DNA of 64,000 bases from Candidatus Dormiibacterota bacterium (GCA_963716365.1 OY970307.1:2320349-2384348), one strand, 5' to 3'. Counted from the first letter of the stretch, positions 524 to 64,000 are shown. Program-made: numbers and translations. Notes: generated from the letters alone by a model not told the origin.

Positions 524-1382
524 TCATACGGTGCCGGTCCCGGCGAGCCCTGCGGTGCCGAAGGCAACGATCGCCTCGGCTGCCCGTGCGAGCCCTTCCG
601 CGAGCGCGACGCTGAAGATCGCGTCGTCGGAGCGCATCGCCTCGGCGATATGCCCCAGAAAGCCGCCGGCCAGCGCGTCACCGGCGCCGGTGGGATCCAC
701 CACGGCCGGGACAGCCACGGCGGGCATCGCCACGAGCGTGTCAGCCGTGACGCATGCGGCTCCTTCCGGACCGTGCTTGACCACGACCGCCCGCAGACGG
801 CCTGCGCCGCAGAGCTGCGCGGCGGAGTTCCGCCAGTCGTCGCTGCCTGTCAGCGTGTTCAGCTCGGCGCCGGTGAGGAACAGGATGTCGATCTGCCGGA
901 TGACGGCGTTGACCTCCGCCCGCTGGTGCTCGATGAATTCGGTCATCGAATCGAGACCGATGACCCCCGCGCTCGACTGATCGATGACCGCGGCCTGCAG
1001 CGCCGGGGCCATGCTGCCGACGAAGAGCACGTCAGCGCGGCGGGATTGCTCAGACAGTGCCGGCTCCCAGAGCGGGTCGCACCCCGGCTCCGACGAACTC
1101 GTGCGACGTGACCCAGCGGTCGAAGTCGTGGACGGCGTGCCAGCGGAAGGTCGGCGACTCACTGACCACCATCCCGTCGAGGTGGATCGACGGGCGGGCG
1201 AGTATCCGGCGGTATTCGGCCACGGTGTCCGCGCCGACGATGCCGTTGACGTGGACCGGCGCGTAGCGCGACGCCGCGAGCGAGAAGTACACGGCCGAGC
1301 CTCCGAGCGCGTCGCGCCGACCGGCGGGTGTCGTCAGGTCGTCGCTGTGGAACGTCCCCGCGACGGCGACGTCCCAGGTCAC
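524..1382 (-). pseudogene. PfkB/ribokinase-family sugar kinase, disrupted by an apparent +1 frameshift near 1082-1100
   Basis: The N-terminal ORF 1050..1382 (GGSAVYFSLAAS...) and the C-terminal ORF 524..1162 (ADVLFVG...DPTGAGDALAGGFL, the PfkB signature) lie in different frames and overlap at 1050-1162. Their combined length of about 285 aa is typical for PfkB. Confidence 0.6.
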
Positions 1383-1395
1383 CTGTGGAGAGCGA

Positions 1396-1764
1396 TCAAC
1401 CCGCCGCGGCGGTCCGGTCGCGGGGGCCGAACAGCGGAATGATCGGCGCGAGCCTCGGTCGCCGGGACTCGAGCGAACGCAGCAGGAGCACTTCCTGGGC
1501 CTCGAAGAGGATGTCGGCGACGTGGTCCGGCTCGCGGTCGATGCCGAGCCGGTCGCGAAGGTCCGAATCCACCGCGCCGACGGCTCGAACCACGGCGCTC
1601 CAGAGCACCGGCGGGATGAGCCGGAACGAGCGCATGCGGCATTCCTCGATCAGGTCGATGAGCACGTCAGCTTCGCGGACGCGGAGCCGGGTGCGGGAGA
1701 TGCGCTCGCGACGGAAGGCCGCCTCGCGTTCGATACGGGCAATCTCCAGGCACGTGCGTTCCAT
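1396..1764 (-). CDS. Hypothetical protein; start inferred at internal MERTCLEIARIEREAAF
   Basis: The ORF-track frame 1396..2010 has a protein-like C-terminal 122 aa. The upstream part of that frame is Arg-rich out-of-frame junk overlapping the next gene. Confidence 0.3.
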   Translation of the reverse strand: MERTCLEIARIEREAAFRRERISRTRLRVREADVLIDLIEECRMRSFRLIPPVLWSAVVRAVGAVDSDLRDRLGIDREPDHVADILFEAQEVLLLRSLESRRPRLAPIIPLFGPRDRTAAAG

Positions 1765-1853
1765 CGGGCCCGGTTGCGCATGCGTGGCGGCGGATTGCAC
1801 GAGTTGGGATTGTCCCACGGTCGGCTCGGGGTGCGAACGTCGGGTAAGTGCTG

Positions 1854-2489
1854 TTACACGGGGTAGCAGATCGATCGCCAGCGTCCGCCGCCCGGAACGA
1901 GGTGTACGACGCGACGAAGCCGCGCGACAGGCTCCGGATCGCCGACCTCGTACTCGACGTCCAGCTCGGCCACGTCGCGGTACGTGGTGCCGCGGGACGA
2001 ATCGGTCCACTCCGGCAGGTAGCGCACCTCTTTGACGCTGACACCGTGCAGCCTGCGCATCGTCGATGCACCCTGGGCCTCGGCGAAGGCCTCCGGTGAC
2101 CCCCAGCTCAGCTGACAGTCCTCGCTCAGCAACGTGAACGCGCGCCGGTACTGACTTGCGCGCATCAATTCCACGAACAGCGCTTCACTGAACGCGGGAT
2201 TGCCGGGTGGACGGCCGCCCGCGGGACTGCGGCCGCGTTCGTGGGCATCCACCAAAGCCGCGGCACGCCTCGACGTGATCGCTGCCGTCTCACTGCCTGC
2301 CCAGAAGGCGCGCGTCTCCGCGTCGACCTGTGTCGCGACCGGTTTGGCAGGCTCGGTCGCGGTGGGCCGGCCGTCGATGCTGACTCCGTTGCGTGACGGT
2401 CGGTGCAGCCAGCGCGTGAACCGATTGCCGTCGGAGGACCCGCGCCGGGCCTTCTCAGTGCCGAGCAGAACGTGAGGTGGGAGCGGCAT
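1854..2489 (-). CDS. Hypothetical protein
   Basis: ORF of 211 aa with plausible composition and no recognisable motif. Confidence 0.3.
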   Translation of the reverse strand: MPLPPHVLLGTEKARRGSSDGNRFTRWLHRPSRNGVSIDGRPTATEPAKPVATQVDAETRAFWAGSETAAITSRRAAALVDAHERGRSPAGGRPPGNPAFSEALFVELMRASQYRRAFTLLSEDCQLSWGSPEAFAEAQGASTMRRLHGVSVKEVRYLPEWTDSSRGTTYRDVAELDVEYEVGDPEPVARLRRVVHLVPGGGRWRSICYPV

Positions 2490-2573
2490 CGACGGCGCCA
2501 GTGTACGCAGCCGCTCGCCTTCGCCGAAAGGGGCCGGGCACGACGATGCGCCGGAACCCTAGGATGCGCGCTC

Positions 2574-2951
2574 ATGCCGCCAGTCCGCGCTCGCATCCTG
2601 GTCGCTGAGGACGAGGCCGCCGTCGCCCAGCAGGTGATCAACCGCTTCACCCTCATGGGACATGACGTGCACTGGGCGAAAGCGGTGCGCGAGGTCCGCG
2701 CGGAGCTCAAATCCTTCGAGCCGGACGTCCTCATCCTCGACGCCACGCTCGACACCGACGGCCTCGAGTTGTTTCAGGCGATTCGTTTCGCGCCCGAGCA
2801 TCCGCGCGCCGGAGTGGTGATCCTCACCGCCGCCGGCGATGTCCAGGCTCGGGAGCGAGCCCAGCAGCTCGGCGCTGCCGCGGTGATGATGAAGCCGGTG
2901 CGCAACGACGAGCTCGCCGACATCGTCGAGGACCTCCTGACGTATCTCTAG
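2574..2951 (+). CDS. Stand-alone response-regulator receiver (CheY-like) protein
   Basis: Starting from the internal ATG at 2574 the protein reads MPPVRARILVAEDEAAVAQQVINRF...VLILDATLDTDGLELFQAIR...VVILTAAGDVQARERAQQLGAAAVMMKP, a receiver-domain pattern with acidic pocket residues and the conserved T and K positions. Confidence 0.6.
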   Translation: MPPVRARILVAEDEAAVAQQVINRFTLMGHDVHWAKAVREVRAELKSFEPDVLILDATLDTDGLELFQAIRFAPEHPRAGVVILTAAGDVQARERAQQLGAAAVMMKPVRNDELADIVEDLLTYL

Positions 2952-2986
2952 ATCTGCTGTCAGAGGCCGTCTGAACGGTCGCGGCG

Positions 2987-3520
2987 CTAGTGATAGACCG
3001 CGTCGAGGACGATGTTGAGGCCGCTGCCGCCGACCCAGAGCACGAGCACCGCCCACGCGTAGACCGGGATCGCCGCGCGCTGGTCGTACCAGGTGACGAC
3101 TCGGCGGTCGGTCATGATCAGGATGGCGAGGCCGTCGAGCAGCATGAACAGCAGCGTCCCCAGGAGCCCGGGCACCCCCGCGCTGTTGCCGGAGATCGCC
3201 AGCACCACTTCCGAGATGATCGCGAGCGCGATATGGGTCACGAGCGTGCCGATCTGCACGATGCGCACCCAGGCGTGCCGCCGGGTCAGCAACGCGGCCA
3301 GGATGATCAGGGTCGCCGCGAACGCGGCCGATGACACCGCCTCGATCACCTGCGCGTAGAAGGGCAGGGGCTGCACACCGGCGCTGCTCTGCACGGCGCC
3401 GGCAAACGGGGCCAGCGTCACGAGCAGCGCCAGGATCACGAGGATCAGGTCCCACGTGTAGACGTACAGGACCGCGCCCGGGCGGTGTTCCTGCTCCTGC
3501 TCCTCGTCTCGCGCGGTCAT
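2987..3520 (-). CDS. Small integral membrane protein of unknown function
   Basis: The internal start MTARDEEQEQEH is followed by four or five hydrophobic helices. The upstream part of ORF 2987..3970 is low-complexity junk. Confidence 0.45.
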   Translation of the reverse strand: MTARDEEQEQEHRPGAVLYVYTWDLILVILALLVTLAPFAGAVQSSAGVQPLPFYAQVIEAVSSAAFAATLIILAALLTRRHAWVRIVQIGTLVTHIALAIISEVVLAISGNSAGVPGLLGTLLFMLLDGLAILIMTDRRVVTWYDQRAAIPVYAWAVLVLWVGGSGLNIVLDAVYH

Positions 3521-3554
3521 CGAGTTCGGCACGCGGCGATGATCGCATCGCGGC

Positions 3555-4685
3555 ATGGTCAGGCAGCGAGCGACCAGCCCTCGGCGCGCTGCGACGTACC
3601 CTTTCGGCGTGACAACCATCGTCGTCCTTCGCGGCGACCAGACCGGACAGGAGCTCCTCGACGAGGCACTGCGCGTCGTCGCACCCGAGGTGATCGGCGT
3701 CGAGCTGGAACTGCAGACCTTCGACCTCTCGCTGGAGCGTCGCCGCGAGACGAAGAACGCCGTTGTCGGTGAGGCAGCGGAAGCCATGCGCGCCGCCGGA
3801 TTCGGCCTCAAAGCCGCCACCGTGACGCCGACGGACCGCAGCGACGTCGGCAGTCCCAATGCCCTGCTTCGCGAACGCGTCGGAGGTCGCGTCATCCTCC
3901 GCACCGGGCAGCGCATCCCGGGCGTTGCCGGCATCGCCGGCGTGAGCGCGCCGATCAGCATCGTCCGCATGGCGATCGACGACGCCTACAACGCCAAGGA
4001 GTGGCGCGAGGACTCCGGCGGTGACGAGATCGCATACCGCACCGAGCACATCTCGCGATCCACCTGCCGTGCAGTGGCCGAGTTCGCCTTCGTGCACGCC
4101 GCGCGGACGCACGCCAAGGTGTTCGGCGGTCCCAAGTTCACCGTCTCGCGCATTTACGAGGGCATGTTCAAGGAGGAGCTGGACGCCGCCGCCGCGCGCC
4201 ATCCGGACGTCGAGTACGAGCCACAGCTCATCGACGCGACGTACGCGCTGCTGTTCAGCAGGGCGGGCGACGCACTCGTCATCCCCGCACTCAACCGCGA
4301 TGGTGATTGCCTGAGCGACCTCGTGCTTCCGCTCTTCGGCAGCATCGCCGGAGCCGAGTCCCTGCTGCTGGGGTTCAGTGACGACTCGCTCGTCCCCAGC
4401 GTGGTGATGGCTGAAGCACCGCATGGGACGGCCCCGAGCCTCGAGGGCAAGAACGTCGCCAACCCGATGGCGATGATCCTTGCGGCCGCGGCGTTGCTCG
4501 GATTCGCCGACGACGACCGCTGCAGGGCCGCGTCGACGCGCATCCGCGACGCCGTCTTCGAGGCGCTGCGCGCCGGCATCGCGACGGCGGACCTCGGCGG
4601 CGATGCGTCGACGACGGCATTCACCGATTCGGTGATCGCTCGTGTGCGCGGCGTCGGGAACGAGCCGCGGCGTGTTCCCGCATGA
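3555..4685 (+). CDS. Isocitrate/isopropylmalate dehydrogenase-family enzyme, probably NADP-dependent isocitrate dehydrogenase; the true start may be a GTG near 3612
   Basis: TTIVVLRGDQTGQELLDEAL at the N-terminus and the C-terminal APHGTAPSLEGKNVANPMAMILAAAALL nucleotide-binding signature match the beta-decarboxylating dehydrogenase family. Confidence 0.75.
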   Translation: MVRQRATSPRRAATYPFGVTTIVVLRGDQTGQELLDEALRVVAPEVIGVELELQTFDLSLERRRETKNAVVGEAAEAMRAAGFGLKAATVTPTDRSDVGSPNALLRERVGGRVILRTGQRIPGVAGIAGVSAPISIVRMAIDDAYNAKEWREDSGGDEIAYRTEHISRSTCRAVAEFAFVHAARTHAKVFGGPKFTVSRIYEGMFKEELDAAAARHPDVEYEPQLIDATYALLFSRAGDALVIPALNRDGDCLSDLVLPLFGSIAGAESLLLGFSDDSLVPSVVMAEAPHGTAPSLEGKNVANPMAMILAAAALLGFADDDRCRAASTRIRDAVFEALRAGIATADLGGDASTTAFTDSVIARVRGVGNEPRRVPA

Positions 4686-5866
4686 ACCGCCTGTACCTCG
4701 ACCACGCCGCCACCACCCCGCTCGCGGCCGAGGTACTCGACGAAATGTTGCCGTACTTGACGACAACACAGGGGAATCCCTCGTCGGTGCATGCGACAGG
4801 ACGCGCGGCGCGGGCTGCGGTCGATGCCGCCCGCGACCGCCTTGCAGCGGTGCTGCGGAGCGCTCAGCGGGAGATCGTCTTCACCGGTTCGGGCACGGAG
4901 TCCGACAACCTCGCGATTCGGGGCGTCCTCGAGCGCTGGGGTGCGGAACGCGGCCGGCATCTTGTCGTGACCGCGATCGAGCACGACGGAGTGCTCGAGA
5001 CGGCGCGGCGCCTGGAGGAGACCGGCGCAGCCACGCTCACGATCGCCGGATCCGAGCGTGACGGTCGCGTGGATCCGGACACCGTCGCCGCAGCCGTGAC
5101 GCCGGAGACCGTGCTTGTTTCAGTCATGCTCGTCAATAACGAGACGGGTGCGGTGCAGGACGTCGCAGCCGTCGCCGCCGCCGTCCACCGGCGCAATCCG
5201 CGAACCCTCGTCCACACCGACGCGGTCCAGTCGCTCGGGCGGATAGCCGTCGACCCCACGGCGCTCGGCGTCGACCTGCTCACGCTCTCGGCGCACAAGC
5301 TCTACGGACCCAAGGGTGTCGGGGCGCTGTGGGTGCGCAACGGCGTGACCATCGCCGCGCAGACGACTGGCGGGGGGCAGGAGCGCAACCGGCGGAGCGC
5401 AACCGAGAACGTCGCGGGCATCGTCGGCATGGCCGCCGCCGCGGACCTGGCGGAGCAGCGGCGGCCTCTGGAGAGCGACCGTCAATCGATGCTCTGCCGG
5501 CGCCTCGTCGCGGCGGTCGCCGCGGACGTCCCGGGTGTGATCAACACCGGCGCCGGCGAGCACACAGCACCCGGATTCGCGACGTTTGCGTTCTCCGGCG
5601 TCCGCAGCGACGTGATGCTGGCCGCGCTCGACATGGCCGGGGTCGACGCCTCGGCCGGATCCGCTTGCGCCAGCGGCGCTCCGCTGCCGTCGCATGTCCT
5701 GCGGGCGATGGGCTACCCCGACGACCTGGCCGCAGGAGCGCTGCGCTGCACCACCGGGCGGACGACGACCGTCGAGGACGTCGACCGAGCCGCAGCGCTC
5801 ATCACCGCCGCCGTCGCGCAGATCCGGAGCAGCGCCGGCGCCGTGGCCGGCGCACCAGCTTCCTGA
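4682..5866 (+). CDS. Cysteine desulfurase, class I (NifS/IscS-like)
   Basis: MNRLYLDHAATTPL at the N-terminus, SAHKLYGPKGVGALWV around the PLP lysine, and a C-terminal catalytic-Cys region (SAGSACASG). Length 394 aa. Confidence 0.85.
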   Translation: MNRLYLDHAATTPLAAEVLDEMLPYLTTTQGNPSSVHATGRAARAAVDAARDRLAAVLRSAQREIVFTGSGTESDNLAIRGVLERWGAERGRHLVVTAIEHDGVLETARRLEETGAATLTIAGSERDGRVDPDTVAAAVTPETVLVSVMLVNNETGAVQDVAAVAAAVHRRNPRTLVHTDAVQSLGRIAVDPTALGVDLLTLSAHKLYGPKGVGALWVRNGVTIAAQTTGGGQERNRRSATENVAGIVGMAAAADLAEQRRPLESDRQSMLCRRLVAAVAADVPGVINTGAGEHTAPGFATFAFSGVRSDVMLAALDMAGVDASAGSACASGAPLPSHVLRAMGYPDDLAAGALRCTTGRTTTVEDVDRAAALITAAVAQIRSSAGAVAGAPAS

Positions 5867-5871
5867 TCGGG

Positions 5872-6375
5872 TCAGGCCGGAGCGGGCAGCCCGATATCCG
5901 CGCGCAGGGTCGTCGCGGCTGTGACCGCCGTGGCGAGGAGCGGGATGATCTGCGACTGGACGCTCGCGATCGTCGCCAGGCTGGGCGCTGTCGCGGCCTG
6001 CTCGAGGAGTGATTCGATCGCCGCGTCGTCGCTGAGCAGATGGCTCGCGTCGATTGCCGCGTCCCCACTGAACCTGGTCGCCCGGAGCGCGTCGTCGTAG
6101 GCGATCGTCGCCTGGCGCTGATTGCTGAGGGCGGTCTGGCACACGGTGAGGGACGCCGTCGGGCTGCCCACGTCGCAGGCCGCGTTCTCGGTGACCGAGA
6201 CCTGGGCCTCGTAGGCGTTGTACGCGTTCGCCGCGGCGCTGTACCTCGACTGGATCTGGGCCGTCGAGAGCGGCGACGGGGTCGGCGACGTCTGGCTGCT
6301 CGATCCGCCACACCCCGTCACGAGGACGCCCGCGAAGGATCCGGCGAGCAGAAGGCAGGTGCGTGGACGTGGCAT
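5872..6375 (-). CDS. Lipoprotein of unknown function
   Basis: Internal start MPRPRTCLLLAGSFAGVLVTGCGGSSSQ gives a signal peptide with an LVTGC lipobox. Confidence 0.5.
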   Translation of the reverse strand: MPRPRTCLLLAGSFAGVLVTGCGGSSSQTSPTPSPLSTAQIQSRYSAAANAYNAYEAQVSVTENAACDVGSPTASLTVCQTALSNQRQATIAYDDALRATRFSGDAAIDASHLLSDDAAIESLLEQAATAPSLATIASVQSQIIPLLATAVTAATTLRADIGLPAPA

Positions 6376-6419
6376 GAGGGAGTGCCGAGAATATCTCAGC
6401 CGGGCCGTCAATCCCCTCG

Positions 6420-6444
6420 TTGGCCCGGTGCCACGATGTATAAT
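6420..6444 (+). promoter_or_regulatory. Putative promoter of the Rrf2-suf operon (-10 TATAAT at 6439-6444, weak -35 TTGGCC at 6420-6425)
   Basis: A consensus TATAAT hexamer lies about 100 nt upstream of the Rrf2 start in an otherwise 70% GC context. Confidence 0.3.
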
Positions 6445-6541
6445 CCTGACCATGACAGTCGGAATTCTCCAGAGCTCCGGGCGGCGCACCGCTCACCGGC
6501 ATACCTCGGACCCGGGCGCCCCACCCGCTGCTTCGTTTTCG

Positions 6542-7000
6542 ATGCGGGTGAGCTCCAAAGCCCACTACGGCCTGCGCATGATGACTGAGTTCGCCAAGGC
6601 ATATGGTTCGGGCCCCCTGAGCATCGCCGAGGTGGCTCGTGTCGAGCACCTGCCGCTTGCCTACCTCGAACAGCTCGCATCGCAGCTTCGGCGCGGCGGG
6701 CTCGTCGAAAGCACGCGCGGAGTCCACGGCGGTTACGCGCTCACCCGCCCCGCCGAGCAGATCAGCGTCCTCGACGTCGTCACTGTCATCGAGGGCGAGG
6801 TTGCACCGGTCGAATGTGTTGCACACGGCTACGTGACCGGAGCCTGTCAGCGCGAGGGCGAGTGCGCGTCGCGCGCGCTGTGGATGCGCCTCAAGGAGAG
6901 CATCGACGCCGTCCTCAGCCAGACCACGCTCGCAGAGCTGGTCGCGGATCAGTCGCTCATCGATGCCATGGCACCCGCGTCCAGCGAGGCCGGCCTGTGA
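6542..7000 (+). CDS. Rrf2-family transcriptional regulator (IscR/RsrR-like), probable regulator of the suf operon
   Basis: MRVSSKAHYGLRMMTEFA gives the N-terminal wHTH. Three-Cys cluster ligands (CVAHGYVTGACQREGEC) follow. The stop overlaps the sufC start. Confidence 0.8.
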   Translation: MRVSSKAHYGLRMMTEFAKAYGSGPLSIAEVARVEHLPLAYLEQLASQLRRGGLVESTRGVHGGYALTRPAEQISVLDVVTVIEGEVAPVECVAHGYVTGACQREGECASRALWMRLKESIDAVLSQTTLAELVADQSLIDAMAPASSEAGL

Positions 7001-7755
7001 CCGCGGCTGTGCTCTCCGTCAAGGGCCTGCACGCCACCGTCGAGGGCAAGGAGATCCTCAAGGGGGTCGACCTCGAGATCCCGCAGGGCGAGGTGCACGC
7101 GCTGATGGGTCCGAACGGCTCGGGCAAGAGCACGCTCGCGTACACGTTGATGGGACATCCGAAATACGTCGTCAACGGTGGTTCGGCGACGTTCGGCGGC
7201 GAGGACCTATTGCCGCTCACCGCCGACGCGCGTGCGCGTCTCGGCCTGTTCCTCTGTTTTCAGTACCCCACCGCGATCCCCGGCGTCACCACGGTGAACT
7301 TCCTGCGCGCGGCGCTGCGTGCGCAGGGCAAGGAGATGCCTGCACGCGAATTCCTGAACCGTCTCAGCGCCGAGATGCAGGAGCTCAAGATCGACGAGAG
7401 CTTCCGCTCGCGCTACATCAACGACGGCTTTTCCGGCGGCGAGAAGAAGCGCATGGAGATCCTGCAACTCGCGATGCTGCGACCCAAGCTCGCGATTCTC
7501 GACGAAACCGACTCGGGGCTCGACGTCGACGCGCTGCGCACCGTCGCTGACGGCGTGATGCGTCTCTGCGGGCCGGACATGGGTGTCCTCGTGATCACCC
7601 ACTACCCGCGCATCCTCGAACATCTTCACCCGGACCGCGTGCACGTCCTTCATGACGGCCGCGTGGTCACCTCCGGCGGGCCGGACCTTGCGCGACAGAT
7701 CGAGCGCGAGGGTTACGAACCAATTCTGGGGACGGCCGTGGCCGCCACCGCGTAG
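6997..7755 (+). CDS. sufC: Fe-S cluster assembly ATPase SufC
   Basis: The GTG start at 6997 overlaps the Rrf2 stop. The protein shows Walker [10 protein letters not shown], the ABC signature FSGGEKKR and Walker B LAILDE. Length 253 aa. Confidence 0.9.
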
Positions 7756-7766
7756 GAGCATTCGCG

Positions 7767-9163
<1,397 letters not shown>

Positions 9164-9167
<4 letters not shown>

Positions 9168-10508
9168 CGACCCCGCTGACCGCGGAGCCCACAGCGGTGC
9201 TGGGGCCAGGGGTCGCGGCAGCCCGGGAGGTCGCATCCCCTGCGTGGCTCGCGGCGCGCCGGCGCATCGCCTGGGACGCATACGAAGCGCTCCCGATGCC
9301 GTCGTCGCACAGCGATGAGGACTGGCGGCGCACCGACATCTCCGCACTCCATCTCGAGCGGTTCACGCCGCTGGAGACGGTGGATGCGGCCGTGCTCGAC
9401 GCGATGCGCGCGCAGCGCGACAGCGCCGCGCCGAACGCAGCGCTGATCTTCGACGGTCCCATCGAGACGATCATCGAGGGCGCTGACACGCTGCTCGCGC
9501 AGGGGATCATCGTGACCACGCTCGAGGAGGCCGCAACGGTCCATCCCGAGCTCGTGCAGCGCGCGCTCGCGGCGGTCCGTGTCGACGAGACCAAATTCAT
9601 CGCACTCTGGAACGCGCTGTGGCGCGGCGGCGCTTTCGTCTACGTCCCGCAGGGCGTCGAGGCGCTCGTCCCGGTGTGGATCGCGCACGCCGCATCCGGT
9701 AGCGACGTCGCGGTGTTTCCGACGACGGCAGTCCTCCTCGAAGAGGGTGCATCGCTCACGGTGATCGATGCCTACGCATCGCCTGCCGGCACCGATGCTG
9801 TGCTCAGCAACGCGGTGGTCGTGCTCTCCGCCGGGCGCGACGCCCGCCTCGACTACAACACGGTGCAGGAGTGGGGAGCCGGGGTGTGGCACATCGCGAT
9901 GCAGCGCACCTCGCTCGACGCCAACGCCAAGCTTCGCTTCACCGGGATCACGCTCGGCGCCCGCCTGCAGAAGGCGTGGTGGGAGGTGATGCTCAACGGG
10001 ATCGGCAGCGAGGCCGACATTTTCGGGATCTGCTTCGGCGACGGCACGCAGCACATCGACCACCAGTCGCTGCAGGCGCACGTCGGCGCCGAGACGCGCA
10101 GCAACCTCCTCCTCAAGGTGGCCGTTCGCGACCAGGCCCGCTCGGTCTACGGCGGGATGATCGACGTCGCGCCGACTGCGGTGCATGCCGACGGCTACGT
10201 CGCCAACCGCAACCTGCTGCTGAGCCAGGGCGCGAAAGCCGAACTCGATCCCGCGCCTCGAGATCCGCGCCAACGACGTGAAGTGCGGGCACGGCGCAAC
10301 CGCCGGCCACATCGATTCGGAGCAGCGCTTCTACCTGATGGCCCGCGGTGTTCCCCCGGACGAGGCGAGCTCGCTGATCGTGCGCGGGTTCATGGACGAC
10401 GTCCTCGACCGTGTGCCGCACCGCGGATTCGCGGAGCTCGCCGGCGCATTGCTGGACGCGGAGATCGCCGGCGCCTCTGTGGCCGGGGTCGCCGCAGCAG
10501 AGGCATGA
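9164..10508 (+). pseudogene. sufD: Fe-S cluster assembly protein SufD carrying an apparent +1 frameshift at 10241-10246; very likely a sequence error rather than a real pseudogene
   Basis: Frame A (9164 onward) reads ...NRNLLLSQGAKA. Frame B, ending at 10508, reads NSIPRLEIRANDVKCGHGATAGHIDSEQRFYLMARG, the SufD C-terminal motif. Removing one A from GCCGAACTCG restores AKADSIPRLEI. The start overlaps the sufB stop. Confidence 0.85.
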
Positions 10509-10846
10509 GCGACGGCTGGACCGACGTGGCCCGCGCGGGCGACATCCCACCTGGATGCGCTGCGCGTGTGGAGATCGACGACGTCCCGGTCGCCATCTTC
10601 AACGTCGGTGGGACCTTCTACGCACTGGACGACACCTGCAGCCACGCCGAGGCGTCGTTGAGCGAAGGCGACCTCGACATCGACCGCTGTGTCATCGAAT
10701 GCCCGCTCCATGGATCGAGCTTCGATCTCCGAACCGGCGACCCGCTGACGCTGCCGGCCGTCGAGCCGGTGCGCGTGCACCGCGTCGAGATCAATGCGGA
10801 CGGCGTGTTGCGAGTGGCGCTCGCCGATGAGGTCCCCGCGTCGTGA
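10505..10846 (+). CDS. Rieske [2Fe-2S] ferredoxin-like protein embedded in the suf operon
   Basis: MSDGWTDVARAGDIPPGCAARVEI...CSHAEASLSEGDL...IECPLHGSSFDLRTG carries the CxH...CxxH Rieske motifs. Its ATG overlaps the sufD stop (ATGA) and its stop overlaps the sufS GTG. Confidence 0.8.
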   Translation: MSDGWTDVARAGDIPPGCAARVEIDDVPVAIFNVGGTFYALDDTCSHAEASLSEGDLDIDRCVIECPLHGSSFDLRTGDPLTLPAVEPVRVHRVEINADGVLRVALADEVPAS

Positions 10847-12093
10847 CCACCCACGTCGCCGCACCGAGCGCACTCGACGTCGCGCGGATCCGCGCTGACT
10901 TCCCCATTCTCGACCGGCAGATCGGCACGCATCCGCTCGTCTACCTCGATTCGGCGGCGACGTCGCAGAAGCCGCGTGTGGTGGTGGAAGCGGTCGACGC
11001 CTACTACGCGACGAGCAACGCCAACGTCCACCGTGGCGTGCACACGCTGGGCAACGACGCCACCGATGCCTTCGAGCGAGCGCGGGTTCGGGTCGCCGAA
11101 TTCATCGACGCTCCATCTGAAGGCCTCGTCTTCGTGCGCAACACCACCGAGGCGATCAACCTGGTGGCGTACTCGTACGCGACCCAGATGCTCGAGCCCG
11201 GGGACCGCATCCTCGTCACCGTCATGGAGCACCACAGCAACCTCGTGCCGTGGCAGCTCGCGGCGGAGCGACGCGGCCTGCAACTGGTCGCGCTCGGCGT
11301 CGACGCGGACGGCCGTCTCGACCTGAGCAACCTCGACGAGCTCCTGGCGCCGCCGACGCGCCTCGTCGCCATCGGCCATCAGTCGAATGTCCTGGGCACC
11401 GTGAATGACATCCGCACGATCACGAGCCGCGCCCACGCAGCGGGCGCCCTCGTCTGCCTGGATGCAGCCCAGTCGGTCCCGCACATGCCTTTCTCGACAC
11501 GGGACCTCGACTGCGACTTCATCGCGTTCAGCGGTCACAAGATGCTCGCGCCGATGGGAATCGGCGTGCTCTGGGCGCGTCCCGACCTGCTCGAGCGCAT
11601 GCCGCCGTTCCTCGGAGGCGGCAGCATGATCAGCCGCGTGACCCTCGAGCACAGCACGTGGAACGAGGTGCCGCACAAGTTCGAGGCGGGCACCCCCGAC
11701 GTGGCCGGCGCGGTCGGCCTGGCGGCAGCGTGCGACTACATCGACGGGATCGGCCGTGACCGCATCCACGCACACGAACTCGCGCTGACGCGTCACCTCC
11801 TCGATGTTCTGGACGAAGTTGGCGATATCACGATATTCGGACCCCGCGACCTGGAATCACGTGGCGGCGTGGTGAGCTTCAACCTCGCCGACGTGCACGC
11901 CCACGATGTGGGCACGATCCTCGACCGCCGCGGCATCGCCGTGCGCGCCGGACATCACTGCGCGCAACCGCTGATGGCCCGCTACGACGTTCCCTCGATG
12001 GCGCGCGCGTCGGTGTATCTCTACACGACGCACGAGGAGATCGACGCTCTGGGTGAAGGGCTGGGCGAGGTGCGCCGGGTCTTTCGCGTCTGA
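10843..12093 (+). CDS. sufS: Cysteine desulfurase SufS (class II)
   Basis: 416 aa: LVYLDSAATSQKP, SGHKMLAPMGIGVLW around the PLP lysine, and the C-terminal RAGHHCAQPLM catalytic Cys loop. Confidence 0.9.
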   Translation: MTTHVAAPSALDVARIRADFPILDRQIGTHPLVYLDSAATSQKPRVVVEAVDAYYATSNANVHRGVHTLGNDATDAFERARVRVAEFIDAPSEGLVFVRNTTEAINLVAYSYATQMLEPGDRILVTVMEHHSNLVPWQLAAERRGLQLVALGVDADGRLDLSNLDELLAPPTRLVAIGHQSNVLGTVNDIRTITSRAHAAGALVCLDAAQSVPHMPFSTRDLDCDFIAFSGHKMLAPMGIGVLWARPDLLERMPPFLGGGSMISRVTLEHSTWNEVPHKFEAGTPDVAGAVGLAAACDYIDGIGRDRIHAHELALTRHLLDVLDEVGDITIFGPRDLESRGGVVSFNLADVHAHDVGTILDRRGIAVRAGHHCAQPLMARYDVPSMARASVYLYTTHEEIDALGEGLGEVRRVFRV

Positions 12094-12224
12094 AGCGCCG
12101 TTTTCGGTTTCCGTTGGTGCGCAAGCGAACCGACGCGGGCCCGGTTTGCAACATACATGGGCGCGTGCGGTGACGGATGACACCGTTGCCGTGGGCCGGC
12201 GGGAATTCGGCACAGGGTGAGCGC

Positions 12225-13061
12225 ATGTTCAAGCGCTCGAGCATGGTTCCGCTCGTTCTCGGTGCCACCGTGATGTTCGCGGCGGCCTGGCCGATGTCCG
12301 CGTATGCGGCAACGTCGCCACGCCTCGGGACCGCCCTCAACTTCACGGTGCTCGGTGGATCCACCATCACCAACACCGGCCCCACGGTCGTGACCGGTGA
12401 GCTTGGCCTCCGCCCCGGTACAGCGCTCACCGGGTTTCCGCCCGGCGTCGTGACCGGTGTGAAGCACCTCACCGATGCGGTCGCGCTGCAGGCGAAGAAC
12501 GACCTCGTCACCGCATACAACGACGCGGCAAACTCGCCGACAACGTCGGACCTCACCGGCAAGAATCTCGGCGGCAAGAACCTCGTCCCAGGCGTCTACA
12601 AATTCAGCTCCTCAGCGCAGCTGACGGGCTCGCTGACCCTCAGTGGGCGCGGCGTCTTCATCTTCAAGATCGGCAGCACGCTGACGACCGCGAGCAGCTC
12701 TGTCGTTCGCCTCACCAACGGCGCTCAGGCATGTCAGGTCTTCTGGCAGGTCGGATCGTCGGCGACGCTCGGTACGGCGACAAGGTTCCAGGGGAATCTC
12801 ATGGCGCTGACGAGCATCACGCTGACGACGGGCGCGAACGTCACGGCCGGCCGCGTGCTCGCCCGCAATGGCGCCGTGACATTGCACACCAACGACATCA
12901 GCCGCCCCGCCGGCGCATGTCTCGCGGCATCCGTGAACACACCCGAGACGGGCGCCGTGACCTCGATCCTTCCAGGTCTCGGGCTCGCGATGGTCTTCGG
13001 CGGCATTGCGTCGGTCGCCATCGGCGTGCGCCGTTCGCGCCCGCGACGCGCTCTCCGCTAA
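12225..13061 (+). CDS. Secreted DUF3494 (ice-binding-like, IBP) protein with a C-terminal TPETG motif, hydrophobic anchor and RRSRPRR tail; the ORF track also allows a start at 12177
   Basis: Signal peptide MFKRSSMVPLVLGATVMFAAAWPMSAYA. The repeats LGTALNFTVLGGSTITNTGPTVVTGELGLRPGTALTGFPPGVVTG...GNLMALTSITLTTGANVTAG fit the right-handed beta-solenoid repeats of the DUF3494 ice-binding-like family. Confidence 0.7.
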   Translation: MFKRSSMVPLVLGATVMFAAAWPMSAYAATSPRLGTALNFTVLGGSTITNTGPTVVTGELGLRPGTALTGFPPGVVTGVKHLTDAVALQAKNDLVTAYNDAANSPTTSDLTGKNLGGKNLVPGVYKFSSSAQLTGSLTLSGRGVFIFKIGSTLTTASSSVVRLTNGAQACQVFWQVGSSATLGTATRFQGNLMALTSITLTTGANVTAGRVLARNGAVTLHTNDISRPAGACLAASVNTPETGAVTSILPGLGLAMVFGGIASVAIGVRRSRPRRALR

Positions 13062-17714: not shown

Positions 17715-17736
17715 CCCGGATTGTAGCGGGGCGTGC

Positions 17737-18327: not shown

Positions 18328-18342
18328 AATCAGCCGCTAACC

Positions 18343-23675: not shown

Positions 23676-23684
23676 CGGGACGCC

Positions 23685-51141: not shown

Positions 51142-51151
51142 AGTCGGCCGG

Positions 51152-51403
51152 CTACCAGCCGGGCGGCGGCTCACTCCGGTTGAGCAGGCGAACGAAATCC
51201 TCGGCACGCGCAACCGCCTCCCATCGCCGCGAGAAGAAGTCCTGCGTGATCATCCGGTTGTCGGCGATCGAGGTCACCGTGACCGCCCATTGATTGAGGG
51301 CTCGAGAGACCTCAACCTCGTGGGTGCCGCCTTCATTGCGCATGACCACACCGCTTGCGGCCGGCCGGCGTCCACGGTCGTTGCGTCGAGAGGACGCCAT
51401 AGC
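51152..51403 (-). CDS. Small hypothetical protein
   Basis: The internal start MAMASSRR... gives an 84-aa product. Confidence 0.25.
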   Translation of the reverse strand, partial: AMASSRRNDRGRRPAASGVVMRNEGGTHEVEVSRALNQWAVTVTSIADNRMITQDFFSRRWEAVARAEDFVRLLNRSEPPPGW

Positions 51404-51478
51404 CATCGTGAACACCTCCAATACAAATCCGCCCGGCAGAGCCGGTTCGCCCCGACCATTGTCCCCCAAACGGGTGCC

Positions 51479-52474
51479 TCAAAGCGAGAGGGTGAGCTGG
51501 CTCCCGCCGTCCTTCTTTTCCCCTCCCCCGACGGTCGCCGGGGGAGGAGTCGGAATTGGTGTCGACGTCTCCACCCACTCGGGAACAGCTCCGTCCCGCT
51601 CACGGAGCGTCTCGATCACGGGCTGAGGTGGGCGCGGCAGTCCGACCCCGAGCATCGCCCCGAAGTCGAACGCGTTGACGACTGCGTAGTTGCTCTTGTT
51701 GTTGTTCAGCAGGACGTGGACGGGCACTCCGTCGTCGCTGGCGGCGCGGATTGCCGGGATCCACTCTGCAAGCTCCGCGGGGGTGTACAGGTAGTTGAAG
51801 CGATCTCCGCTCGTCGGGCCGCCCGAATACCACGTCTGGCGATTGCGCCCGTGGAACCGCGTGATGCAGAGGCGGCGCGACGTGATCGCAAGCAGCGGCG
51901 GCGCCGTTGCGCTCCCGATCTGCGGGGCGTCAACGCCGACGTAGACGCAGTCGAGCTCGCGCAGCAGGTCCTCGGTTGCCGGCCAAGCGTCGCCGTCGAA
52001 CCAGGATCGATGCCGGAACTCGATGGCGAGGAGGTCGTCGGGATGGCGGTCGCGCGCAGCCAGCAGCCAGTCGCGCGCCTCGGGACGGTTGGTGAACCAG
52101 GGCGGGAACTGGTAATGGACGGCGACGAGCTTGCCACTGGCGCGGAGCGGCGCCAGCGCGGCCATGAAGTCGCGCTCCTCATCCTGCGTCGGCTGCCGGG
52201 GACGCCCATCCTCGCGTTCGTGCCCGGTGAGGCTGCGGTACGCCTTGATGTTGAAGCGGAACTGCTCCGGGGTTCGCTCGACCCAGGCCTCGACAATAGG
52301 CGGACGCGGGATCCCGTAGAACGTCGTGTCGACCTCGACGATCGGGAAGTACTGCGCGTAGAAGGACAGCTTCTCTCGTTGCCGTCGCCCACGCTCCAGC
52401 TCCGGTGGATAGAAGTCGGTGTGGTCGGCCCAGTTGCAGGTGCCGACAGCGATGGGCGCGCCCAATTTGAACAA
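51479..52474 (-). CDS. DUF72-family protein (YecE-like)
   Basis: GTCNWADHTDFYPPEL, YAQYFPIVEVDTTFYG and LVAVHYQFPPWF. Confidence 0.75.
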   Translation of the reverse strand: MFKLGAPIAVGTCNWADHTDFYPPELERGRRQREKLSFYAQYFPIVEVDTTFYGIPRPPIVEAWVERTPEQFRFNIKAYRSLTGHEREDGRPRQPTQDEERDFMAALAPLRASGKLVAVHYQFPPWFTNRPEARDWLLAARDRHPDDLLAIEFRHRSWFDGDAWPATEDLLRELDCVYVGVDAPQIGSATAPPLLAITSRRLCITRFHGRNRQTWYSGGPTSGDRFNYLYTPAELAEWIPAIRAASDDGVPVHVLLNNNKSNYAVVNAFDFGAMLGVGLPRPPQPVIETLRERDGAVPEWVETSTPIPTPPPATVGGGEKKDGGSQLTLSL

Positions 52475-58003: not shown

Positions 58004-58831
58004 GTGAGTAGCCCAGAGACCAACCCCACCACCAACCTGCTGCGCGGGAAACGCATCCTCGTCACCGGGGTGCTCACCCCGAAGAGCATCGCGTTCGCCA
58101 TCGCTGCCGCGTGCCAGCAAGCGGGTGCCGAGGTGGTGCTGACGTCGTTCGGCAGGGCGATGAGCCTGACGAAGCGGAGCGCCAACAGGCTCGACCCGGT
58201 GCCCGAAGTCCTCGAGCTCGACGTCACCGACGTCGCCCAGGCGCAGGCAGTCGCCGACCATGTCCGAGGCAGCCTCGGTGGTCTGGACGGCGTCGTCCAT
58301 GCCATCGGCTTCGCTCCCGAGGACTGCCTCGGCGGCGGCTTTCTCGACGCTCCGTGGAGCTCGGTGGCGACAGCCTTCCACGTCAGCAGCTACTCGCTGC
58401 GCACGCTGGCCGCCGCGTTCACGCCATTGATGCCGGAAACAGGCGGCGCGCTGGTCGCGCTCACCTTCGACGCGCGCATCGCGTGGCCGCTCTACGACTG
58501 GATGGGGCCGGCCAAAGCCGCACTCGAGTCGATCGCGCGCTATCTGGCGCGCGAGCTCGGTCCGCGAAAGATCCGCGTCAACACCATCTCCGCCGGTCCG
58601 CTCGAGACGATCGCCGCGCGGTCGATCCCGGGGTTCGAGGTGTTGAAGTCCTCGTGGGGCAAGCAGGCACCGCTCGGATGGGACAGCGCCGACAGCGGCC
58701 CCGTCGCCGATGTCACAGCGTTCCTGCTCAGTGACCTCGCGCGAGCAATCACCGGCGAGATGATCCATGTCGACGGCGGCTATCACTCGCAGGGCGCGCA
58801 GCTGATTCCGCAGGGGGAGGTGCAGGCATGA
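58004..58831 (+). CDS. fabI: Enoyl-[acyl-carrier-protein] reductase (NADH), FabI/InhA-like
   Basis: GKRILVTGVLTPKSIAF, the catalytic Y...K region (MGPAKAALES) and RVNTISAGP. Confidence 0.9.
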   Translation: MSSPETNPTTNLLRGKRILVTGVLTPKSIAFAIAAACQQAGAEVVLTSFGRAMSLTKRSANRLDPVPEVLELDVTDVAQAQAVADHVRGSLGGLDGVVHAIGFAPEDCLGGGFLDAPWSSVATAFHVSSYSLRTLAAAFTPLMPETGGALVALTFDARIAWPLYDWMGPAKAALESIARYLARELGPRKIRVNTISAGPLETIAARSIPGFEVLKSSWGKQAPLGWDSADSGPVADVTAFLLSDLARAITGEMIHVDGGYHSQGAQLIPQGEVQA

Positions 58832-60099
58832 GCGGCAGCAACGGAAACGGCAACGGCGGGAGTCCTCGCGTCGCGATCACCGGCATCGGCGCCGTGACGC
58901 CGCTCGGGCTCGACGCGGAATCGACGTGGCAGTCGTGCCGCCGTGGTCAGGGTGGCATCGGTCCGATCACGGCATTCGACGCCTCGCATCTCACCACGCA
59001 GATCGCGGGACAGGTCAAAGGGTTTGATCCCGAGGTGGTCATCGGCAAGAAGGAAGCGCGCCGGATGAGCCGCTGCACGCAGCTCGCCGTCTTCGCTGCG
59101 CGTCAGGCGATCGAGGACTCAGGCCTGGACATCAGGTCGATGCCCGAGGACGTCGGCGTGCTCGTCGCATCGGGTGTCGGCGGTATCGAGGTGATCGAAC
59201 GCAACGTCCTCGCGCTGTACAACCAGGGACCACGCCGCGTCTCGCCGTTCACGGTGCCATCGATGATCATCGACATGCCGGCGGGCGCGATTGCGATCGA
59301 GTGCGGGGCGAAAGGCGTGAACTACGCCATCGTCAGCGCTTGCGCGTCATCCGGGCACGCCATCGGCGAGGCGGCTGAGTGGATTCGTCGTGGCGAGGCG
59401 ACGGCGATCATCACCGGCGGCACCGAGGCATCGATCACCAATATCAGCGTCGCGGCTTTCGACGCGATGCAGGCGCTGTCGACGCGCAACGACGAACCCG
59501 AGCGCGCGTCGCGGCCGTTCGACAAGGATCGCGACGGCTTCGTCATGGGCGAGGGAGCGGGCATGTTCGTGCTCGAGGACTGGGGCCACGCCGTCGCGCG
59601 TGGCGCGCACATCTACGGCGAGGTCGCCGGCTACGGCGCCACTGCGGACGCGTACCACATCACGCAGCCGGACGAGCAGGGCGACGGCGCGCGTCGCTGC
59701 ATCCTGCGCTCGCTCAAGCGCGCAGGGCGCGGGCCGGACGAGGTCGACTACATCAACGCTCACGGCACATCGACGCAGATGAACGACGCCGCCGAGACCA
59801 AGGCGGTCAAGGCCGCGCTGGGCGAGCTCGCCGGAACGATACCGATGTCGTCGACGAAGTCGATGCACGGGCATCTCCTCGGCGCCGCTGGTGCGGTGGA
59901 GGCGGTCATCACAGTTCTGGCCATTCGTGACCAGTTCGTGCCGCCGACGATCAATCTGGACGAGCCCGATCCCGAGTGCGACCTCGACTACGTCCCCAAC
60001 CAGGGTCGCGACGCCCGCATCGACTTCGCGCTCAGCACCTCGTATGGGTTCGGCGGCCACAACGTGTGCCTGGCGCTGGCCCGCGCCGATGGAGCCTGA
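58828..60099 (+). CDS. fabF: 3-oxoacyl-ACP synthase II (FabF/KasA-like)
   Basis: Active-site Cys (SACASSGHAIG), His-His region (NAHGTST...HLLGAAG), and the C-terminal GFGGHN. Confidence 0.9.
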   Translation: MSGSNGNGNGGSPRVAITGIGAVTPLGLDAESTWQSCRRGQGGIGPITAFDASHLTTQIAGQVKGFDPEVVIGKKEARRMSRCTQLAVFAARQAIEDSGLDIRSMPEDVGVLVASGVGGIEVIERNVLALYNQGPRRVSPFTVPSMIIDMPAGAIAIECGAKGVNYAIVSACASSGHAIGEAAEWIRRGEATAIITGGTEASITNISVAAFDAMQALSTRNDEPERASRPFDKDRDGFVMGEGAGMFVLEDWGHAVARGAHIYGEVAGYGATADAYHITQPDEQGDGARRCILRSLKRAGRGPDEVDYINAHGTSTQMNDAAETKAVKAALGELAGTIPMSSTKSMHGHLLGAAGAVEAVITVLAIRDQFVPPTINLDEPDPECDLDYVPNQGRDARIDFALSTSYGFGGHNVCLALARADGA

Positions 60100-60628
60100 C
60101 CGGCTCGTTCGCGACGCAGGGCAGGGGCGCATCGCCCTTCGGCGCGCCGACATCACCACGCTGGCTGTCGACGCGATCGTCAACGCCGCGAACAGCCGTC
60201 TGGCCGGCGGTGGCGGCGTTGACGGGGCGATCCACCGGGCCGCCGGTGCTGACCTGATGCATGAGCTGCGGGAGCGGTACTCGGGATGTCCGGCCGGCTC
60301 GGCGGTCATCACGAGTGCTGCCCGTCTCAATGCTCGCTACGTCATCCACGCCGTCGGCCCGCGCTGGCGCGACGGCCGCCACGACGAGCCGGCGCTGCTG
60401 GCATCGGCATATCGATCGGCGTTCGCACTCGCCGCCGAGCACGGCTGCGAGACCGTTGCCGCGCCGTCGATCAGCACGGGGATCTACGGCTTCCCGATCG
60501 ACCAGGCCGCGCCGATCGCGATCGAGGCGGCGAACGCAGCGTTGTGCGCGGACGCCACGTCCCTGCGCGAGATCACCTTCGCACTCTTCTCCGACGTTGA
60601 TCTCGAGATCTTCGCGAGGGCCCTGTGA
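60089..60628 (+). CDS. Macro-domain protein (ADP-ribose / O-acetyl-ADP-ribose binding, YmdB-like)
   Basis: The internal ATG overlaps the fabF stop. RADITTLAVDAIVNAANSRLAGGGGVDGAIHRAAG and YGFP match the macro-domain signatures. Confidence 0.75.
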   Translation: MEPDRLVRDAGQGRIALRRADITTLAVDAIVNAANSRLAGGGGVDGAIHRAAGADLMHELRERYSGCPAGSAVITSAARLNARYVIHAVGPRWRDGRHDEPALLASAYRSAFALAAEHGCETVAAPSISTGIYGFPIDQAAPIAIEAANAALCADATSLREITFALFSDVDLEIFARAL

Positions 60629-60646
60629 CGCCACCTTGACGGTGGC

Positions 60647-61933: not shown

Positions 61934-62005
61934 GAGTTGATCTGACGACTTCATGGGTACGTTCACGAGCATGAAAGGCATGGCCGCCATCATTCGAGCA
62001 GCACG

Positions 62006-63160
62006 ATGAACCGCAGCACGAGCAAGGAAGTCCCACTCGGGCGGATTGCCGGGATCAGGATCACGGCCGACTGGAGCGTGCTCGTCATCGGCGCCCTCCT
62101 CGCGTGGGGTGTCGCCGGCGCCGCTGTCCCGGGCGAGGCGCCGGGCACGTCGGTATGGATGGCGTGGATGGTCGGCGCCATCGTCGCGCTGCTGCTGCTC
62201 GCCTCGCTCACCGCCCACGAGCTTGGCCACGCACTGCTGGCCCGCCGGCGCGGCATCGCGGTCGAGGGCATCCGCCTCTGGCTCTTCGGCGGCGTCGCAC
62301 AGATGAGCGGCGACTGGATGACCGGCAAGACGGAGATGCTCGTCGCCGCGATCGGACCGGCGATCACGCTCGTGATCACTGCGCTGTTCACCGCCGCCAC
62401 CTGGCTGTTCGTCACCGTGAGCGCGCCGCCGCTGGTCGTGGTCGTCGCCGAATGGGTCGCCGCGGTCAACCTGCTGCTCCTGCTCTTCAACCTGATCCCC
62501 GCGTTCCCACTCGACGGCGGGCGGATCCTGCGTGGGTTCATCTGGACGCGGACCAAGAACCGCATGTCCGCGACGGTCGCCGCGGCCCGCGTCGGTCGCG
62601 TCTTCGCCATCGCACTGGTCGGCATCGGCCTGCTGGACGCCTTCTTCTACGACCCTGTCGGCGGCGTCTGGCTGATGTTGATCGGCTGGTTCCTCGACAA
62701 CACCGCCCGCGGCGAGGCGCAGAGCGAGCAGGCTCGCCAGGTGCTCGAGGGCCTGCTCGTCGGCGACGTGATGTCCAAGGACCCGGTAGTCGTGCCGTCA
62801 TGGATCACCGTCGACCTGCTCGTCAACCAGTACGTCGCCGGCCACCACGACACGTCGTTCCCGACCCACAGCATCGACGGACGCGTGGACGGGCTGGTGA
62901 CGATGCGCGGGATCAAGAAACTGCCGGCGCAGCAGCGCGGCCTGCGTCGTGCCATCGACATCGCCATCCCGGCCGCGAGCGTGCCGATCGCTCGCCGCGA
63001 CGAGAAGCTCACCGACCTGCTCAAGCGCCTCGGGCCGGCGTCGGATGGCCGCGCGATGGTCTACGACTCGGACCGCCTCGTCGGCATCGTCTCGCCGAGC
63101 GACATCTACCGCCTGCTCCACGGCGGCACGCCGCGTCCGCCCGCTCCTGCCGCCGCGTAG
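62006..63160 (+). CDS. Site-2 protease (M50 family) with a C-terminal CBS pair
   Basis: HELGHAL zinc motif, the LDGG second motif, then CBS domains. Confidence 0.8.
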   Translation: MNRSTSKEVPLGRIAGIRITADWSVLVIGALLAWGVAGAAVPGEAPGTSVWMAWMVGAIVALLLLASLTAHELGHALLARRRGIAVEGIRLWLFGGVAQMSGDWMTGKTEMLVAAIGPAITLVITALFTAATWLFVTVSAPPLVVVVAEWVAAVNLLLLLFNLIPAFPLDGGRILRGFIWTRTKNRMSATVAAARVGRVFAIALVGIGLLDAFFYDPVGGVWLMLIGWFLDNTARGEAQSEQARQVLEGLLVGDVMSKDPVVVPSWITVDLLVNQYVAGHHDTSFPTHSIDGRVDGLVTMRGIKKLPAQQRGLRRAIDIAIPAASVPIARRDEKLTDLLKRLGPASDGRAMVYDSDRLVGIVSPSDIYRLLHGGTPRPPAPAAA

Positions 63161-63167
63161 ATCAGCG

Positions 63168-64000
63168 CTACGCGTGGTCCTCGACGCCGAGGATCAGCTT
63201 CCCGAAGTTCTCGCCGCGAAAGAGCCGCAGGAGGGTGTCCGGGAATGATTCGAGCCCGGTGATGATGTCCTCGAGGGAACGCAGCCGGCCCTCGGCGATC
63301 CATCCCGCCATCTCGGCTCCAGCCTCCTGGTAGCGCGCGGCGAAGTCGAAGACGAGAAACCCCTCCATACGCGCCCGGTCCACGAGCAGCGCCATGTAGT
63401 TCGCCGGTCCCCGGGCGGGGCCCTCGTTGTTGTACTGCGAGACCGAGCCACAGATGACGATACGGGCGTGGCGCGCAAGTCGCGTCAGTGCGGCGTCGAG
63501 CACGTCACCCCCGACGTTGTCGAAATACACGTTGATGCGGTCCGGGCACTGCTCGCGCAGCGCGATCCGGACGTCCTCGCTCTTGTAATCGATCGCCGCA
63601 TCGAAACCGAGCTCATCGACGATGAACCGGCACTTCTCCGGGCCGCCGGCGATGCCGATCACGCGGCAGCCTTTGATCTTCGCGATCTGTCCGACCGCCA
63701 TGCCCACCGCGCCCGCAGCGCCGGACACGACGACGGTGTCTCCTGCCACGGGTTTGCCGATGTCGAGCAGGCCGAAATATGCCGTCATGCCCGTCATTCC
63801 GAGCACGCTGAGATACGTCGTTAGCGGCGCCAGGTCGGTGGAGACACGAGTTCACCCCGGATCCGTCACTGAGCGCGTACGCCTGGACGCCGAAGCTGCC
63901 GGTCACGTGGTCACCGGCGGAGAAGCCCGGGTGCCGCAACTCGACCACCTCCCCGGCGCCGAGCGCCCGCATGACCTCGCCGATCCCGACGGGCGGGATG
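63168..64000 (-). pseudogene. NADP-dependent medium-chain dehydrogenase/reductase (YncB/CurA-like), partial; apparent +1 frameshift at 63848-63853
   Basis: The C-terminal frame (from 63806) reads LSVLGMTGMTAYFGLLDIGKP...VSGAAGAVG. The N-terminal frame (ORF 63613..63972) reads VVELRHPGFSAGDHVTGSFGVQAYALSDGSGVNS. Removing one A from GTGAACTCG restores ...DGSGVTRVSTDLAPLTTYLSVLGMTG. Confidence 0.7.

Follow-up and report, generated by a model that had tools for sequence, protein, structure and literature searches.

Errors at Dam and Dcm sites were encountered earlier on R9.4.1. For R10.4.1, the minimal signature shared by methylation errors is that the purine 5' of an A is called ambiguously as G or A (RA/TY); the authors ascribed these errors to methylation and gave sequencing based on the polymerase chain reaction, or masking, as the remedy (Lohde et al. 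2024, PMC11610573). A study of matched native and amplified DNA found an excess of G-to-A and A-to-G changes concentrated at methylation motifs (Liu et al. 2026, bioRxiv 10.64898/2026.01.14.699587), and native-DNA assemblies of a high-GC bacterium carried hundreds of substitutions and insertions, depending on the strain, with inflated counts of coding sequences (CDS) (PMC11649196). Here we describe a 64,000-nucleotide stretch of Candidatus Dormiibacterota bacterium (GCA_963716365.1 OY970307.1:2320349-2384348), referred to in full length as the window, in which sufD, rnpA, dnaN and other genes are interrupted by single extra bases in the pentamer GASTC (S = G or C, that is, GAGTC or GACTC). We put at about 0.8 the probability that these frameshifts are long-read consensus errors at modified GASTC, the modification most likely being N6-methyladenine (m6A), and that the genes are intact in the cell.

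The pattern is the RA/TY signature together with an insertion variant in which GA is read as GAA. It resembles the R10.4.1 methylation errors (PMC11610573; 10.64898/2026.01.14.699587) in that a short strain- or lineage-specific motif shows G/A ambiguity 5' of an A, only some copies of the motif are affected and assemblies of the same strain differ. However, the cited papers describe substitutions, whereas a large share of the errors in the window (8 of 23) are frameshifting one-base insertions, and the setting, unlike that of the R10.4.1 bacterial assemblies, is one of uncultured soil metagenome-assembled genomes (MAGs), several being species representatives. The phenomenon belongs to a known class of sequencing artefact; its biological interest is low and its relevance practical.

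Insertions and substitutions at GASTC in the window

One-base insertions were found at eight positions of the window (1096, 10242, 24283, 27774, 31139, 32841, 51141 and 63851), and all eight are hosted by GASTC, which makes up 0.8% of the sequence (chance ~2e-17); a chance origin of these motif-bound insertions is excluded. A preliminary description of the window had traced five frameshifts to one extra A in the hexamers GAACTC at 1095-1100, 10241-10246 and 31137-31142, GAAGTC at 27772-27777 and GAGTTC at 63848-63853. All five hexamers are present, the reading frame does switch at each, and the extra A explains these five; they are not all, the full set being seven genic frameshifts and one intergenic insertion. 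A tblastn frameshift scan and assembly comparisons added GAACTC at 24281-24286 and GAGTTC at 32837-32842, and the scan recovered the rnpA and dnaN frameshifts in the window as well. A codon-usage Viterbi model, trained on the window, iteratively retrained and given no information on the motif, located changes of frame on the same strand at 1077/8, 10247/8, 31141/2 and 63844/5.

Two metagenome contigs in ENA, located by exact-protein look-ups, served as near-identical assemblies: contig_18829 of ERZ25039518 (1.88 Mb), which covers the whole window, and contig_12266 of ERZ25039482 (1.29 Mb), which covers 1-14686 and 21577-56788. Both bear Flye-style names and are 99.91-99.97% identical to the window. 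Exact-protein look-ups with SufB and with the products of 42452-43615, 39282-40526 and 44405-45187 returned no match, likely because of start-codon choice or motif-linked amino-acid differences. The assemblies were discordant at 50 sites, 41 of which fell on GAGTC/GACTC, 0.8% of the window (binomial p ~1e-76). For each of the eight window insertions, one contig or both lack the extra base, and the contigs carry insertions of their own: one in contig_18829, at position 369 in glpX, cuts GlpX to 286 amino acids, and a GAGT[T]C in contig_12266, at 30897 in dnaN, cuts DnaN to 306 amino acids. At the pfkB site (1095-1100), the window reads GAACTC and contig_18829 reads GACTTC; the remaining motif-site differences between the assemblies are all G-to-A at motif position 1.

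Deletion of one A had been proposed to repair sufD, dnaN, rnpA, a medium-chain dehydrogenase/reductase (MDR) oxidoreductase gene and a pfkB-like kinase gene. For the first four, full-length Pfam matches span the junctions of the repaired products. In sufD (9164-10508, plus strand; GA[A]CTC at 10241-10246, GACTC in contig_12266), the SUFBD_core match runs unbroken over the junction (residues 178-409). In dnaN (~30132-31248, plus strand; GA[A]CTC at 31137-31142, again GACTC in contig_12266), all three beta-clamp domains are matched, the C-terminal one at positions 2-121 of 121. Repaired RnpA matches Ribonuclease_P over positions 1-107 of 109; its frameshift (GA[A]GTC at 27772-27777, minus strand, GACT[T]C on the coding strand) stands where GAGTC is found in both near-identical assemblies and in all five short-read relatives. 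The MDR oxidoreductase gene (63168 to >64000, minus strand), shifted by GAGT[T]C at 63848-63853 (GA[A]CTC on the coding strand), yields on repair ADH_N_2 up to its last position and then ADH_zinc_N; contig_18829 has AAGTC here, a substitution error without the extra base, and an intact 340-amino-acid product. The junction in the pfkB-family kinase gene (~524-1382, minus strand; GA[A]CTC at 1095-1100) lies outside the Pfam match and was settled instead by contig_12266 (99.96% identical), which has GACTC and an intact 285-amino-acid PfkB.

At the further sites, GA[A]CTC at 24281-24286 lies in the C-terminal part of a peptidase M16 gene (~24167-25348, minus strand) and is supported by 13 query loci; GACTC and a 393-amino-acid M16 protein are found in both near-identical assemblies, and the extra base is absent from short-read relatives. 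GAGT[T]C at 32837-32842 shifts the frame at the 3' end of a gene for a glycosyltransferase resembling monogalactosyldiacylglycerol synthase (~32736-33885, minus strand), where both near-identical assemblies have GAGTC and a 382-amino-acid product. GA[A]GTC at 51140-51145 (plus strand) stands directly past the stop codon of an ogt-like gene (50569-51141) and has no coding consequence; both near-identical assemblies read GAGTC. In further suspicious regions (17680-18349, 36971-37138, 51137-51596 and 23605-23687), a frameshift was ruled out by the gene calls of the near-identical contigs.

Substitutions, which the preliminary description does not mention, hit the same motif. At least 15 G-to-A changes at GASTC (AASTC, or GASTT on the other strand) were found in the window, at 1805, 8920, 17357, 28295, 28849, 29722, 30057, 31340, 35755, 39319, 42422, 43625, 48983, 53188 and 62028, and at each a near-identical assembly has the canonical GASTC. 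Six alignable sites were checked in short-read relatives (28295, 28849, 29722, 30057, 31340 and 35755), which have G at all of them. All 15 substitutions are G-to-A at motif position 1, one purine for another beside the A, as in the RA/TY signature. Together with the insertions, ~23 of ~107 GASTC sites in the window are wrong (about a fifth), an error rate of about one per 3 kb. This fraction, and the fact that the assemblies are wrong at different sites, agree with the partial penetrance suggested in the preliminary description, and the intact GAACTCG examples offered there are present at 11776, 4079 and ~45877. The errors are asymmetric between strands, with GACTC becoming GAACTC or AACTC in 6 of 8 insertions and 13 of 15 substitutions.

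The affected motif in Nanopore and short-read relatives

Species-representative genomes were searched with the repaired DnaN, which gave 80 loci, nearly all from Candidatus Dormibacterota MAGs. The closest relative is a short-read MAG with ~93% nucleotide identity. Many other loci come from "MFD...bin" MAGs of the Microflora Danica long-read project, which are Flye assemblies from Nanopore reads only with one Medaka 1.8.0 polishing round (PMC12313526). The short-read relatives all read CTCGACTC at the dnaN site, and among the aligned related loci the window's CTCGAACTC recurs only in L030, a Nanopore MAG. One dnaA site is affected alike in L016, L021, L027, L030 and L061.

For the frameshift scan, the open reading frames (ORFs) of 17 short-read loci were compared by tblastn with all loci and the window, and adjacent alignments in differing frames were taken as junctions. 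In the Microflora Danica Nanopore MAG loci (0.42 Mb), GAASTC (GAACTC, GAGTTC, GAAGTC or GACTTC) stood at 27 of 48 +1 junctions, and many of these motif junctions were backed by 10-17 query loci. In the short-read MAG loci (1.03 Mb), the scan found the motif at 0 of 7 +1 junctions and 0 of 13 junctions of any kind. The low-support junctions in short-read loci were rejected as frameshifts and put down to gene-boundary or shadow-ORF noise, NN scaffold gaps (L006, L017 and L019) and a conserved intergenic block. Of the 20 Nanopore Dormibacterota loci examined, 19 show the signature; it is absent from L062. In L055, a more distant Nanopore MAG (MFD10064.bin.2.98), several +1 frameshifts lie at GGGCCC instead of GASTC (12919-13451; also 2955 and 10989), which suggests a different modified motif in that lineage.

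The preliminary description had named GANTC, the HinfI/CcrM target, as the affected site, and this proved too broad. In our motif test, the state of each target genome was scored at GANTC sites that are conserved in two or more short-read genomes. At GASTC, error-type changes were found at 113 of 377 sites in Nanopore loci versus 11 of 351 in short-read loci (Fisher p = 2e-24, odds ratio 13). At GAWTC (W = A or T), the numbers were 15 of 224 and 13 of 182 (Fisher p = 1), so that GAATC and GATTC stand at background in this test, in which the error signature is a proxy for modification and a modification that causes no error could escape. These results showed that the affected motif is GASTC (GAGTC/GACTC), not all GANTC. 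Raw observed/expected counts of GASTC and GAWTC in the 64 kb, which come without a codon-aware null, were not taken as evidence on methylation.

Proposed modification of GASTC and other explanations of the errors

A systematic long-read base-calling or consensus error had been proposed for the frameshifts. This account is borne out by near-identical assemblies that disagree almost only at GASTC, by short-read relatives without the extra base and by Nanopore relatives that repeat the error. In the mechanism we propose, GASTC would carry a base modification in the organism, most likely m6A on both strands, and the modified base would distort the signal of the G-A step. The base-caller or polisher would then read GA as AA (G-to-A) or as GAA (one extra A). 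Local context, read depth and strand mix would set the outcome at each site, leaving about one fifth of the sites wrong per assembly, and different assemblies of the same population would be wrong at different sites.

Several points weigh against this reading. We infer both that the platform of the window is long read, most likely Oxford Nanopore (of the Flye plus Medaka type), and that DNA modification of GASTC is probably the cause. That the modified base is adenine is plausible; the errors are equally writable on the other strand, as C-to-T or as an extra T beside a modified cytosine. The Nanopore comparison loci all belong to a single phylum, Dormibacterota, and 9 of the 50 discordant sites lie off the motif. 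At 32837-32842, two Logan contigs (runs ERR11561019 and ERR12036781) have GAGTTG, in frame, and some short-read relatives have an Asn codon; the true sequence there may be either GAGTC or GAGTT.

If the base-caller or polisher erred at GASTC from sequence context alone, whether or not the DNA is modified, the signature would be expected in nearly every Nanopore locus, much as was seen in these loci of a single phylum. However, R10.4.1 is not known to miscall about 20% of the consensus sites of one pentamer when the DNA is unmodified. The motif-linked errors in the literature vary with the strain and are ascribed to methylation (PMC11610573, PMC11649196), and L062 lacks the signature while L055 has its frameshifts at GGGCCC instead; we consider this explanation unlikely. 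The same artefact could also arise from a modified cytosine: N4-methylcytosine or 5-methylcytosine as the fifth base of GAGTC/GACTC would be called T, or its TC would be called TTC. Every error can be written both ways (GACTC to AACTC is GAGTC to GAGTT on the opposite strand, just as GAACTC is GAGTTC), and PF01555, the family of two methyltransferases encoded in the window, includes N4-cytosine enzymes, which also appear, with weak E-values, among the PDB matches. Against a cytosine, the catalytic motifs of the two proteins are D-P-P-F and D-P-A-Y and not the S-P-P-Y/F that family knowledge gives as typical of N4-cytosine enzymes, the known GANTC-family enzymes write m6A, and the published minimal error signature has R before the A (PMC11610573), which makes this explanation quite improbable in our view.

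If the frameshifts were real mutations, whether pseudogenes, strain heterogeneity or mutagenesis at the motif, it would be natural that they are visible in the window taken alone and that two of them (10242 in sufD and 31139 in dnaN) are common to the window and contig_18829. However, dnaN and rnpA are essential genes, and for each shift there is a >99.9%-identical assembly without it, the subset differing per assembly. The same positions are affected independently across species in Nanopore genomes only, and short-read relatives are always intact. We regard real mutations as very improbable, and the same observations uphold the earlier judgement that true pseudogenes are implausible. Programmed ribosomal frameshifting or transcriptional slippage, by which the proteins would be restored, has the recurrence of one hexamer in its favor and nothing further. 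The site contexts hold a run of only two A and neither a slippery heptamer nor a homopolymer tract nor a downstream structure, one of the insertions is intergenic, and relatives encode the proteins in a single frame; we give this explanation next to no weight.

Candidate methyltransferases and consequences for gene calls

Under long-read consensus error at modified GASTC, two plus-strand genes of the window are candidate modifiers. Beta-class DNA methyltransferase 1 (41641-42462; 273 amino acids) has DPPF near its N-terminus and AGSGTTG near its C-terminus, and beta-class DNA methyltransferase 2 (44405-45187; 253-260 amino acids) has DPAY and then CGSGSS. Their PF01555 matches (1.6e-38 and 8.6e-28) place the catalytic motif before the S-adenosylmethionine (AdoMet) motif, the beta-class order. 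HinfI and CcrM are likewise beta-class PF01555 enzymes, methylate the adenine at position 2 and have in GANTC a target that includes the affected pentamers, but they target all GANTC, whereas GAATC and GATTC are unaffected here. The HinfI/CcrM domain order ascribed to the two proteins stands as far as the beta class and the adenine-type DPPF and DPAY motifs go, and neither protein is a CcrM orthologue: they reach 67 and 80 bits on the CcrM equivalog model, whose cut-off is 830, and the alignment of CcrM to both is confined to ~70 residues around the AdoMet motif, short of the CcrM C-terminal extension. CcrM has a 350-position model and a 366-residue solved chain, whereas the window enzymes have 253-273 amino acids. 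The best solved relatives of both are M.RsrI and 8URK/9C3U-type enzymes; assignment of a specificity from PDB and NCBIfam similarity was abandoned, the matches being too distant to assign a motif. As writers of GASTC the two are candidates only.

In the gene neighborhood within the window, no restriction endonuclease gene adjoins either methyltransferase; between the two lie an acyl-CoA dehydrogenase gene and a small-molecule methyltransferase gene. The N-terminus of methyltransferase 1 was found at the syntenic end of ten loci (L003, L004, L005, L007, L008, L016, L023, L026, L027 and L059), short-read MAGs among them, and a homologue of methyltransferase 2 was found only in L054 among the fetched loci. 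The position of methyltransferase 1, ~10 kb from dnaN, is kept across related species. The gene context of methyltransferase 1 suits a conserved orphan better than a mobile restriction-modification gene, and a conserved orphan enzyme in the relatives would fit the clade-wide error signature.

The Type IIS enzymes PleI, MlyI and N.BstNBI recognize the asymmetric GAGTC/GACTC, of which both strands need methylation, sometimes by two enzymes. The window likewise has two methyltransferases; those systems, however, comprise restriction enzymes, and here neither candidate adjoins an endonuclease gene. For GANTC, the sub-specificities GAWTC and GADTC have been described in SAR11 and Rhizobiales (Hiraoka et al. 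2022, PMC8919816) and give a precedent for a lineage that may modify some GANTC sequences and leave others unmodified. In those lineages methylation falls on the W subset and spares GASTC, whereas here the complementary S subset appears modified.

The error pattern points to a GASTC modification seemingly conserved in Dormibacterota. A more specific proposal, that GASTC-specific adenine methylation is conserved in a family-level Dormibacterota clade and written by the orphan methyltransferase ~10 kb from dnaA-dnaN, is possible but in our view doubtful. If true, it would represent a CcrM-like lineage-wide epigenetic system outside Alphaproteobacteria, the complement of the SAR11 GAWTC sub-specificity, and the error signature would be an accidental read-out of the methylome.

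The errors also alter gene calls. The sufD insertion joins SufD to the downstream Rieske gene in a 560-amino-acid ORF (9164-10846). In contig_12266, the gene calls are a 285-amino-acid PfkB, a 447-amino-acid SufD and a separate 113-amino-acid Rieske protein, and the PfkB and SufD lengths are exactly those of the repaired window sequences. The gene caller gives the 560-amino-acid "SufD-Rieske fusion" for contig_18829, a false domain architecture that is present in public protein collections. A 95-amino-acid DciA-family gene (31295-31582, minus strand) is located just downstream of recF, in convergent orientation to dnaN; where an assembly has the dnaN frameshift, the extended dnaN ORF runs into this gene, which the gene caller omits.

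In long-read-only MAGs of the clade, motif-linked frameshifts and amino-acid changes affect core genes, among them dnaA, dnaN, rnpA, sufB/D and glpX, and several of the affected MAGs represent their species. Such errors inflate pseudogene and CDS counts, split or fuse proteins, put false sequences into protein databases and distort comparisons of samples at the level of single-nucleotide polymorphisms. Because the motif is known, they are correctable by methylation-aware re-polishing or motif-aware repair.

Some discordances and frameshifts outside GASTC adjoin CGGTC or GGTCC (window 27270; L004:20043; L021:847 and 1431; L059:2732), which may be a second error-prone context; at 27270 the window has gcagGggtcc and both near-identical assemblies have gcagCggtcc. 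A 736-amino-acid ORF (2559-4769, minus strand) was dismissed as a shadow ORF. Rfam and tRNA scans of the 64-kb window found nothing. An intergenic block of ~165 nucleotides (36975-37140) comprises a GGTCTCC...GGAGACC hairpin together with a G/C-rich stem. Most related loci conserve this block, which sets off the frameshift scan; no Rfam family matches it, and its fold z-score is only about -1.7 for both strands. Finally, a 1.4-kb Logan contig from SRR28061248 (L082) is 100% identical to window 58798-60191, and the same population is therefore present in at least one further public run.

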